NCBI RefSeq assembly: GCF_003334815.1
Contig: NZ_QOWO01000014.1
Origin: Escherichia coli
GTDB lineage: Bacteria; Pseudomonadota; Gammaproteobacteria; Enterobacterales; Enterobacteriaceae
Length of the DNA stretch: 64,000 nt
Reading direction: 5' to 3' (one strand)
The position numbers and the translations under genes were made by a program. Of the stretch, positions 25,736 through 27,878 are shown piece after piece. The notes under the pieces were generated by a model that made no database searches, had not been told where the DNA came from, and saw only the letters and a program-made list of their open reading frames with translations. Position 1 is the stretch's first letter. Every line of letters starts with the position of its first letter.

Positions 25736-26542
25736 TTAACCCTGACGCGCCGCTTTCGCCATCATCTTCTTCAGCGCATGAGAAACCGCAACAAACCCAA
25801 AGGTGGCGGTCACCATCGTTGCCGCGCCAAATCCAGATGCACAATCCATCCGCTTCGGCCCTTCTGCCGTGGCTTTCATCGCACACACCGTACCGTCTGA
25901 CTGCGGGTACACCAGCGCTTCAGTAGAAAACACGCAATCCACGCCGAGCTTACCTTTACTGTTTTTCACTACGCCAAAATCGCTTTTCAGGCGCTCGCGC
26001 AACTTCGCCGCCAGCGGGTCCTGAATCGTTTTCGCCAGATCGGTAACCTGAATCTGCGTCGGATCAATCTGCCCACCCGCGCCACCGGTTGTGACCAGTG
26101 GGATTTTATTGCGCCGACAATAAGCAATCAGCGCCGCTTTGGGCCGTACACTATCAATGGCATCAATCACGTACGAATAACCCACGCTCATATACTGCGC
26201 TACGTTATCCGGCGTCACGAAATCATCCACCACCGTTACACGGCACTCCGGGTTAATCTGGCGAATACGCTCCGCCATAACTTCCGCTTTTGCCAGCCCA
26301 ACGTTATCGCGCAGGGCATGAATTTGCCGATTGGTATTGGTGACGCACACATCATCCATATCGATAAGCGTGATTGCGCCAATCCCCGTGCGCGCCAGCG
26401 CTTCCGCCGCCCAGGAACCGACACCACCGATACCAACCACACAAATATGCGCGTCAGCAAACAGTTGCAACGCTTTTTCACCATACAGACGCGCTGTGCC
26501 ACCAAAACGCTGACGCCATGCATCACTAATTACCACAGACAT
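25736..26542 (-). CDS. tcdA: tRNA threonylcarbamoyladenosine dehydratase (ThiF/MoeB-like E1 fold)
   Basis: 268-aa ORF with nucleotide-binding motif VVGIGGVGSW. Confidence 0.88.
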   Translation of the reverse strand: MSVVISDAWRQRFGGTARLYGEKALQLFADAHICVVGIGGVGSWAAEALARTGIGAITLIDMDDVCVTNTNRQIHALRDNVGLAKAEVMAERIRQINPECRVTVVDDFVTPDNVAQYMSVGYSYVIDAIDSVRPKAALIAYCRRNKIPLVTTGGAGGQIDPTQIQVTDLAKTIQDPLAAKLRERLKSDFGVVKNSKGKLGVDCVFSTEALVYPQSDGTVCAMKATAEGPKRMDCASGFGAATMVTATFGFVAVSHALKKMMAKAARQG

Positions 26543-26595
26543 AGCACCTCAGAATTAAAAAGGGCGAGGTTATCCCTCACCCTAAACGCATAAAT

Positions 26596-26693
26596 GCCTG
26601 ATGCGCTACGCTTATCAGGCCTACATAACTCCTGCAATATTTTGGATTTGCATGATTTGTAGGCCGGATAAGGCGTTCACGCCGCATCCGGCA
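26596..26693. repeat. Pair of REP elements (BIME-like) in the tcdA-mltA gap
   Basis: gcctgatgcgctacgcttatcaggcctac (26596..26624) and gtaggccggataaggcgttcacgccgcatccggca (26659..26693), classic REP palindromes in opposite orientation. Confidence 0.7.
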
Positions 26694-26780
26694 TGAACAA
26701 CGCGCACTTAGTCAATAATCAGGATGTGAGGTTACCCCTCACCCTGTCATATCCGTAAAAACGGCATACAGAATATCACA

Positions 26781-27878
26781 TCAGCCGCTAAAGACGTTAC
26801 CTGCGCCCGGGGCGGTTTTCAGCACCCAGACACGTCCATAGTGGTTGTACCAACCTGCGCGGTGTCCGGCTTCCGGCCCGATCCCTTGATAGATATCGAA
26901 GTGTTGGCCTTTGATTGCACCACCGACATCCAGCGCCACCATCAGACGCAGTTCGTACTGACCATTAAATTTGCCGTTATTATCCAGCAACGGCACTTCT
27001 GCCAGCAAGGTAGTACCTGGCGGAATAATGGAACGATCAGAGGCAACTGACGCGCGACCAACCAGCGGCACCGCACTTGCCCCTTTCACCGGAGCAAAAG
27101 ATTGCGGTTTAAAGAAGACGAAAGACGGGTTCTGTTCCAGCAGCTCGCGAACCTCGGCTTCACTGTGTGTTTCGCCCCAGTGACGAATCGCCTGCATCGA
27201 CATATCTTCTTTTTTCACTTCGCCACGGTCGATCAGCACCTTACCAATGCTGCGATAGGCATGACCGTTTTTCCCTGCATAGCTGAAAAAGTTAAGCGGA
27301 CTGCCATCACCAAAGTCGATATACCCACTACCCTGCACATCCATAATGAAGTTATCCATCAGGGAGTTACTGTAAGCGAGAATATATTTATCACTCAATG
27401 CCCCCGCGTAGATCTCCGCACGAGACGGCAGACGACCACGTTTTGGCGGCATACGGTAAATAGGATACTGGAACTCGCCCTGGCGGGTATGGCGCGCCTG
27501 AATTACCGGCGTGTAATAACCGGTAAACTGCACGTTACCATAGTTGTCGGCACCTTCCATCTGCCAGGCATCAATGCCGAACTGGCGCATATTGCGGGTA
27601 TCACCGCCTGCGCGCAGCCACTCTTGCACCGCGTTATAAACATTACTCTGGTTGCCATACAGACGCGGTGACGAATTACGGATATGGTTAATTTGCTCGG
27701 CAAAATCACCGGCGTTAATCGGCGCGCCAACGGCATCTGGCTGGTTCACCAGAGAGAAAGGCTGGGTAAATTTCCCGTCTTTATATTGCTGTCCGCGATC
27801 GGTTGGTTTGGAAGAGCAGGCGGCAAGCATTGCCACAACCGTGCCCATAAGAAGGTACTTTACCCAACGTCCTTTCAT
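26781..27878 (-). CDS. mltA: Membrane-bound lytic murein transglycosylase A (lipoprotein)
   Basis: Product starts MKGRWVKYLLMGTVVAMLAACSS (lipobox) at ATG 27878; the ORF track 433-aa version is a spurious 68-codon upstream extension. Confidence 0.87.
   Translation of the reverse strand: MKGRWVKYLLMGTVVAMLAACSSKPTDRGQQYKDGKFTQPFSLVNQPDAVGAPINAGDFAEQINHIRNSSPRLYGNQSNVYNAVQEWLRAGGDTRNMRQFGIDAWQMEGADNYGNVQFTGYYTPVIQARHTRQGEFQYPIYRMPPKRGRLPSRAEIYAGALSDKYILAYSNSLMDNFIMDVQGSGYIDFGDGSPLNFFSYAGKNGHAYRSIGKVLIDRGEVKKEDMSMQAIRHWGETHSEAEVRELLEQNPSFVFFKPQSFAPVKGASAVPLVGRASVASDRSIIPPGTTLLAEVPLLDNNGKFNGQYELRLMVALDVGGAIKGQHFDIYQGIGPEAGHRAGWYNHYGRVWVLKTAPGAGNVFSG

Follow-up and report, generated by a model that had tools for sequence, protein, structure and literature searches.

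We found that the two near-identical repeats that flank a pair of REP sequences between mltA and tcdA of Escherichia coli are best read as a target duplication, in which a BIME-1 element would have inserted at the intrinsic terminator of mltA and left a copy of the terminator hairpin on each side of itself. We put the probability of this reading at about 0.8, taken together with the insertion scheme, the fates of the two copies and the route of loss that are proposed below. The analysis concerns a window of 64,000 nucleotides, by which we mean the whole stretch of DNA analysed; it is 100% identical to K-12 across the mltA-tcdA region. Both genes that flank the repeat pair, tcdA and mltA, lie on the minus strand. 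We refer to the tcdA-proximal hairpin copy as D and to the mltA-proximal copy as U, and the features of the spacer, in window coordinates, are as follows.

26540-26552, minus strand: tcdA start codon (26542-26540) and Shine-Dalgarno sequence GAGG (26550-26547), from the open reading frame at 25736-26542 (tcdA in RefSeq); CTGAGGT..ATG is conserved across genera
26553-26560, minus strand: U-tract UUUUAAUU of the working terminator, from the terminator scan, with a Term-seq 3' end at 26555
26561-26583, minus strand: tcdA-proximal stem-loop of the mltA terminator (D hairpin), with a 9-pair stem, orthologous to the one hairpin found in empty E. coli alleles and outgroup genera; contains the direct-repeat copy 26564-26583
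26584-26725, no strand assigned: inserted BIME-1 (RIP/RIB-type), 142 bp, absent from empty alleles and outgroups
26584-26595: short Y-side flank of BIME-1
26596-26624: Y REP
26625-26658: L linker
26659-26692: Z1 REP
26693-26725: Z1-side outer motif
26721-26745, minus strand: mltA-proximal stem-loop of the terminator (U hairpin), without a U-tract; contains the direct-repeat copy 26726-26745
26753-26764, minus strand: small stem-loop CCGUUUUUACGG, an ancestral part of the mltA 3' UTR, present in occupied and empty alleles and partly conserved in Citrobacter
26781-26783, minus strand: mltA stop codon, from the list of open reading frames and the RefSeq annotation

An earlier note on this DNA had described two 18-bp direct repeats, each able to fold with the bases before it into a short hairpin, and both halves of that description hold. 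The copies, GAGGTTATCCCTCACCCT at 26566-26583 and GAGGTTACCCCTCACCCT at 26728-26745, lie on the plus strand with start-to-start spacing of 162 nt and differ by one mismatch. At up to three mismatches the 18-mer has two matches in the 64-kb window, where shuffled sequences give an expectation of 0.02. The order hairpin, REP, REP, hairpin between mltA and tcdA, also pointed out in that note, is real and non-random. The direct repeat extends unambiguously over 20 nt, and each 18-mer within it supplies the loop and the 3' arm of a hairpin that is completed by the preceding bases. Read on the minus strand, the D hairpin is AGGGUGAGG-GAUAA-CCUCGCCCU (-17.2 kcal/mol), followed by UUUUUAAUU, a U-tract; its nine pairs include a G.U wobble that corresponds to a C26565/A26579 mismatch on the plus strand, which bears out the claim that a G-U wobble exists on the minus-strand transcript only. 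The U hairpin is AGGGUGAGG-GGUAA-CCUCAC-AU-CCU (-15.4 kcal/mol); its lower stem is built from the final bases of the inserted element and carries a 2-nt AU bulge, and its stem is followed by GAUUAUUGAC without a U-tract. A promoter scan of the mltA-tcdA spacer gave no candidate, and the MG1655 RefSeq record annotates no repeat at this position.

The 142 bp between the hairpins is, by sequence, a BIME-1 (RIP/RIB). An inverted-repeat search and alignments placed one Y REP and one Z1 REP in inverted orientation around an L linker, which is the composition of a BIME-1, as a single unit downstream of the mltA stop codon with no tandem array. The element is ~90% identical over 137 bp (positions 1-137) to the BIME-1 of the fepA-entD spacer, found by searching with the inter-hairpin DNA only, and genomes in which the mltA-tcdA site is empty still carry that ~90% identical copy. 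When metagenome contigs were scanned for the pattern of the Y-REP/L-linker core, 120 loci were obtained, which fell into 18 genomic sites; the mltA-tcdA element aligns with 15 other BIME-1 sites, and the homology ends at the hairpin copies. Alignment of representatives gave the family layout tGAGAyTGmTGAC-AAACGCAAAACT-[Y REP]-[L]-[Z1 REP]-ATGAACAAAGCGCACTTTGTCAACAATCTGA, with a consensus of tGAGAyTGmTGACAAA at both ends; these terminal inverted motifs outside the REPs are presumably the "outer motifs" of the old nomenclature. The mltA-tcdA copy lacks the ~13-nt Y-side motif tGAGAyTGmTGAC that most copies carry and keeps only the Z1-side motif, with three mismatches. In the L linker the IHF consensus WATCAANNNNTTR is degenerate: the K-12 copy has two mismatches and gave no match at a limit of one, and the family-typical sequence and the allele of Escherichia sp. 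E1V33 have one mismatch. In an Rfam search only parts of the BIME were matched, and the hairpins were not: the L linker is the ES036 match at 26617-26659 on the minus strand (46.5 bits, gathering score 37.6), and the Z1 REP gives a sub-threshold match to naRNA4. The Rfam "sRNA" families at this position, among them ES036 (CssrF), are really pieces of a DNA repeat.

The D copy is the one that terminates transcription. In the Term-seq data that we drew from Adams et al. 2021 (eLife, PMC7815308), converted with an offset of 2,919,300 between window and MG1655 coordinates that was checked against the RefSeq record, a minus-strand 3' end with 32,337 reads maps to MG1655 2945855, or window 26555. 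This end falls within the U-tract, at a distance of 6 nt from the D stem and 13 nt upstream of the tcdA ATG; in the rows given for it, it has an intrinsic terminator score of 12.2 and a Rho score of 0.55, and it is not classed as a region of Rho termination. The D hairpin thus has a GC-rich stem-loop with a U-tract in the terminator scan and, in the published Term-seq/BCM data, an in vivo 3' end that is insensitive to Rho inhibition. Coverage in the same rows is 65 downstream of the end and 107 upstream, which indicates that the terminator is leaky. Naville and Gautheret 2010 had earlier counted the element upstream of ygdL (=tcdA) as a candidate attenuator associated with a BIME. D is thus both the working terminator of mltA and an attenuator of tcdA. 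The U hairpin was not called by the terminator scan and has no U-tract, and among the LB 0.4 rows listed from PMC7815308 no minus-strand 3' end falls between 2945855 and 2947055. U would accordingly be a non-terminating hairpin inside a lengthened mltA 3' UTR, where, with the REPs, it may act as a putative barrier to 3' exonucleases and not as a terminator. Transcripts do end at the site, as the earlier note had allowed for: besides the strong minus-strand end past D, the rows listed include a weak plus-strand end (1,964 reads) at MG1655 2946050, window 26750, antisense to mltA and 5 nt past U. Because a T-tract is absent there, it is probably the processed end of an antisense transcript that crosses the BIME. 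A further minus-strand end in these rows (25,474 reads), classed as ORF-internal and having no computable intrinsic terminator score, lies 123 nt into mltA (window 27755, MG1655 2947055).

The state of the spacer before the insertion was read from 80 orthologous mltA-tcdA loci, with one genome per species. Citrobacter amalonaticus, C. sedlakii, Citrobacter sp. NCU1, Phytobacter massiliensis and six Enterobacter species have spacers of 75-77 nt with a single hairpin, a T-tract and a Shine-Dalgarno sequence; their hairpin belongs to the same sequence family, and the spacing of the tcdA Shine-Dalgarno sequence is the same. The presence of this arrangement in Citrobacter, Enterobacter and Phytobacter indicates that a single intrinsic terminator of mltA is ancestral, and the two 18-mer hairpins are, judged from these alignments, two copies of that terminator, local to this locus. 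The same BIME-1 with the same junctions is found in E. albertii, Escherichia sp. E1V33 and one divergent E. coli representative, which makes the insertion an old one within Escherichia. The U copy of E. albertii is divergent in sequence, yet its stem is kept perfect by two G-C to A-T double changes, a hint that its structure matters.

Within E. coli the site is polymorphic. A 441-bp query was matched in full in 2,752 of 5,426 complete genomes (~51%), which have the K-12 arrangement; the remaining genomes gave a two-piece match that spans 278-279 bp and is about 162 bp shorter, the period of the repeat. When 11 E. coli alleles and three from divergent Escherichia were compared, the aligned empty alleles had one perfect hairpin, AGGGUGAGG-GGUAA-CCUCACCCU-UUUUUAAUU, in a 76-nt spacer. 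One could suppose that such alleles never held the element and either retained the ancestral state or acquired it by introgression through recombination. E. coli recombines freely, the flanks are mosaic, and the hairpin of one empty type (C10, 90-1), GAUAA/CCUCACCCU, resembles that of the outgroups, all of which would fit. Several features of the empty alleles argue against it, as does the sharing of the insertion with E. albertii and other divergent Escherichia. The empty alleles of Ecol745 and QA-1986 combine occupied-type upstream sequence with the loop GGUAA, otherwise confined to U copies; that of TUM1886 has the D-type loop and stem with a rare 1-nt T-tract deletion in common with the occupied allele of Combat11I9; and over 430 bp of flanking sequence some empty and occupied alleles are told apart by just 2-4 sites. 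The empty alleles of C10, 90-1 and S1-KEN have the upstream haplotype of an occupied allele (L008). We therefore consider it somewhat unlikely that the empty alleles were never occupied. That they are nested in several occupied haplotypes, together with the age of the insertion, favours several precise excisions, and the alleles suggest that empty sites arose repeatedly by precise excision between the 20-nt repeats, although recombination between alleles could mimic this in some cases. Loss of the element, supported by the empty alleles with copy-specific variants, probably explains the ~49% of E. coli genomes that are empty. Two small variants were seen among these alleles: around 26556-26560 the T-tract reads TTTTTATTC instead of TTTTTAATTC in Combat11I9 and TUM1886, and UMB200201_11 has the D-copy loop GAAAA.

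The same kind of duplication recurs at other BIME-1 sites. We compared 75 nt to the left of each BIME-1 with 90 nt to the right, using 240 cross-locus comparisons as controls. Direct repeats of 18-29 nt at the same locus, scoring above all 240 controls, were found at 8 of the 15 other sites, and at a ninth the flanking repeat is visible by eye. At the remaining 6-7 of the 15 this comparison gave no flanking repeat; these sites may be old, decayed or different. The flanking repeats are specific to their locus, form stable GC-rich hairpins and abut the terminal motifs of the element. They are direct and not inverted, because asymmetric loops and T-tracts keep their orientation; the same asymmetry and T-tracts exclude inverted copying of one flank, that is, an outward extension of the inverted repeat of the element. 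Empty alleles are available at two of these sites. Between metE and ysgA all 5,426 E. coli genomes are empty and have one CCGGGTGG..CCACCCGG hairpin, and a 93%-identical metagenome relative is occupied, with BIME-1 between two hairpin copies. The site between a prohibitin-family gene and tkt is occupied in 1,214 genomes, and its empty allele has one AAGGGCCGC..GCGGCCCTT hairpin. At both tkt and metE the limits of the repeat are the feet of the palindrome. Since hairpin duplication is found at most other BIME-1 copies, it was probably made by the insertion reaction itself. The site represented by 16 metagenome contigs (L093) has a direct repeat of 29-37 nt that spans the hairpin, the T-tract and CGCCAAAAGCAA; its Y-side end is truncated at a stretch like the element's own AAACGCAAAA, a possible microhomology junction.

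From these end states, with their direct repeats, repeat limits that coincide with the hairpin and conserved element ends, we infer an event of insertion and duplication. We propose that the ancestral spacer of ~76 nt held one intrinsic terminator, AGGGUGAGG-GAUAA-CCUCACCCU-UUUUU, ending 13 nt before the tcdA start. On the comparative data, BIME-1 would have entered at this hairpin in an ancestor of Escherichia, with ~20-23 bp of the hairpin duplicated on both sides. In the simplest scheme, a hypothetical enzyme would have cut or joined one strand at one foot of the target palindrome and the other strand at the other foot; after fill-in, the hairpin would have set the length of the duplication. 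The D copy, which kept its U-tract, would have stayed a working, leaky terminator or attenuator, as the Term-seq end shows, and the U copy, having lost its U-tract, would have become an internal hairpin of an mltA 3' UTR made 162 nt longer, along with the REP stem-loops. Slipped-strand events or recombination between the 20-nt direct repeats would remove one period and restore the single terminator, and the self-pairing arms of the element should promote this loss, as in the precise excision of Tn10.

A serious alternative to this scheme is replicative template switching of an MMBIR-like kind, in which a replication fork that has stalled at the hairpin would copy a BIME-1 at another place and then resume upstream of the hairpin. 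The junction at mltA-tcdA is not textbook-clean, as the Y-side motif is missing and the repeat can be counted as 20 nt or as 23 nt with a 2-nt insertion. Across BIME-1 sites the repeat varies in length from 18 to at least 29 nt, reaching at least 29 nt with the T-tract included at L093, and the Y-side end is variably truncated at mltA-tcdA and L093, with possible microhomology, while the Z1-side end is constant; this pattern of repeat lengths and ends would suit template switching. We nevertheless consider that route unlikely. Most copies have precise ends, the ~16-nt terminal inverted motif is common across genera, the flanking hairpins show no chimerism with the flanks of donor sites, and at tkt and metE the repeat ends where the palindrome does, which also speaks against it. 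To our knowledge, no known transposase gives a hairpin duplication of such variable length. In 1.38 Mb of fetched DNA we found no autonomous element with the terminal motifs, only pairs of BIME-1 size and weak or chance pairs; the inverted motif pairs with longer spacing there either matched weakly or were repeats that all belong to one locus. We rejected a link to rayT, since the rayT locus is flanked by a different, short-linker type of BIME without the BIME-1 outer motif.

The hairpin might instead have been duplicated in tandem first, for example by slippage, with BIME-1 landing between the copies later. The mltA-tcdA locus taken alone is compatible with these two steps, and the accumulation of REPs downstream of genes is well known. 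Among the spacers of the 80 species, none had a tandem hairpin that lacked an insert, and the empty alleles at tkt and metE-ysgA hold one hairpin, not two. Moreover, the configuration, in which the repeats adjoin the ends of the element directly, recurs at 8-9 other E. coli sites and in further genera, so that the same two rare steps would have been needed many times; we regard this order of events as improbable.

The earlier note had favoured a composite mosaic element and asked whether the 18-mer is a dispersed repeat. A BLAST search with both hairpin variants against complete E. coli genomes (E up to 10, sensitive to matches of roughly 19-20 nt and longer) returned 8,156 places in 5,425 genomes with a median of two per genome, about one per empty and two per occupied genome, which fits the mltA-tcdA locus only; in E. 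coli, as judged across 5,426 genomes, the 18-mer is not a dispersed family. That the two hairpins and REPs form one mobile unit, a notion to which the symmetric arrangement and the hairpins on each side of many other BIME-1 copies lend some appeal, is very hard to sustain and largely refuted, because the hairpin sequence is confined to this one locus at 1-2 places per genome, the flanking hairpin changes from locus to locus, and genera without the insert have the single hairpin with its T-tract; the DNA of a repeat family is only the 142 bp between the hairpins.

Comparable arrangements occur in other genera. In three Cedecea-like genomes (L047, L049 and L063) the mltA terminator hairpin of that group, CGGGCTGTATAATCAGCCCG, which has another sequence than that of E. 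coli, is duplicated around inserts of 150-160 bp upstream of tcdA (~1270-1500 in those loci); the inserts are of at least two different sequences, with interiors unlike the E. coli element, and four relatives of these species have one hairpin copy. In Kosakonia sp. S29 a hairpin copy stands on either side of two species-specific REPs. The inserts of L049 and Kosakonia sp. S29 have, beside each of their hairpin copies, a motif within 1-2 mismatches of the ~16-nt terminal motif of BIME-1; the insert of L063 has it at one end, and the ends of L047 gave no good match to it. L049 also has a perfect, palindromic IHF consensus at its centre, and L047 and L063 have 1-mismatch matches near theirs. We would tentatively, and at somewhat less than even odds, group BIME-1/RIP and these counterparts in other Enterobacteriaceae as one MITE-like family, with the ~16-nt terminal motif and a central IHF site, that integrates at the hairpins of intrinsic terminators by cutting or joining at the feet of the palindrome and thereby duplicates the entire hairpin. 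If so, the extent of the target duplication would depend on the structure of the DNA and not on the geometry of an enzyme, which the single-strand model of RAYT action does not predict, and both the position of BIME-1 at the 3' ends of transcription units and its precise loss would be explained. The spacer of Phytobacter diazotrophicus looks like a derivative that lacks the upstream hairpin and one element end.

Set beside known systems, the insert resembles other BIME-1/RIP/RIB elements as a typical single copy at the 3' end of a transcription unit; the descriptions of REP/BIME sequences in the literature searched give them neither terminal repeats nor target duplications, whereas this copy is bracketed by a duplicated target hairpin. 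Like a MITE, BIME-1 is non-coding, is ~150 bp long, has terminal inverted repeats as a family and flanking direct repeats, and is polymorphic for presence and absence, and at mltA-tcdA, tkt and metE-ysgA the flanking duplication is single in the empty site. It differs in that the duplication of a MITE is fixed at 2-10 bp and that of BIME-1 is 18-29 nt, variable and coincident with a palindrome, and in that no autonomous partner was found in the 1.38 Mb. In the single-strand transposition of IS200-IS605 type by RAYT (TnpA-REP) that has been proposed for REPs and REPINs, the substrate is likewise an inverted REP pair, and rayT is present in K-12. The reaction as described leaves no flanking direct repeats, and its reported cleavage sites are within the BIME at the feet of the REPs and not at its outer ends; mltA-tcdA, in contrast, has a 20-nt direct repeat, and most other BIME-1 sites have repeats as well, so that the locus does not have the form expected of RAYT. 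In Tn10 and Tn5, precise excision occurs by slippage between the target duplications and is stimulated by the inverted repeats of the element. The likeness to Tn10/Tn5 lies in direct repeats that bracket a self-pairing element and in a loss of one period that restores the site; at mltA-tcdA, however, the repeats are 20 nt long and themselves palindromic. As analogies only, Cas1-Cas2 spacer integration (IHF-assisted in E. coli) duplicates a whole, partly palindromic target of ~28 nt through attacks at its borders on opposite strands, and IS10 uses its target symmetrically on a smaller scale. The BIME-1 insert is ~150 bp against 33 bp for a spacer, its targets are terminator hairpins of any sequence, and we found no evidence that a Cas protein is involved in BIME-1 insertion. 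Class C group II introns and SPRITE/terminator-like repeats are likewise mobile or repeated DNA at intrinsic terminators and gene 3' ends, but they bring about no duplication of the terminator, and BIME-1 has no coding content.

Bachellier and co-workers are said to have described, in 1997, the loss of whole BIME-1 elements from some strains. BIME-1, its attenuator context and the loss of whole copies are thus already known in kind. The literature searched describes REPs as being without MITE signatures and does not describe hairpin duplication at BIMEs; key papers of the 1990s lie outside that literature, so earlier publication is possible. The spread of REPs and BIMEs has lacked an agreed explanation since the 1980s, and under the favoured RAYT model one would expect no target duplication. 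Duplication of the whole hairpin was seen at three loci for which empty alleles are available, at the majority of the BIME-1 sites sampled and in several genera; it is a signature that constrains any mechanism, and its footprint offers a simple way to spot recent insertions. That one terminator copy keeps the U-tract offers an explanation for how BIME-1 can sit at the ends of transcription units without lost termination, and the direct repeats account for scarless loss of the element. Roughly half of the strains of E. coli have an mltA 3' UTR and a tcdA leader that differ by 162 nt from those of the rest, and this polymorphism is a natural experiment on the effects of REPs on mRNA stability and on read-through into tcdA.

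Some further spacers upstream of tcdA carry repeats of another kind. In Enterobacteriaceae UBA5654 the spacer is 639 nt long and contains about five tandem repeats of ~105 nt. Each holds a boxC-like palindrome, CCCTCTCCC..GGGAGAGGG, and repeats the end of mltA, from its last codons to the stop (GGTAACGTGTTTAGCGGCTGA); the array is a tandem amplification that takes in the 3' end of mltA. In two Pseudocitrobacter loci, boxC-like repeats (..GGGAGAGGGTTAGGGTGAGGG..) stand in the place of the terminator, and the mltA hairpin arm AGGGTGAGGG resembles part of this repeat.
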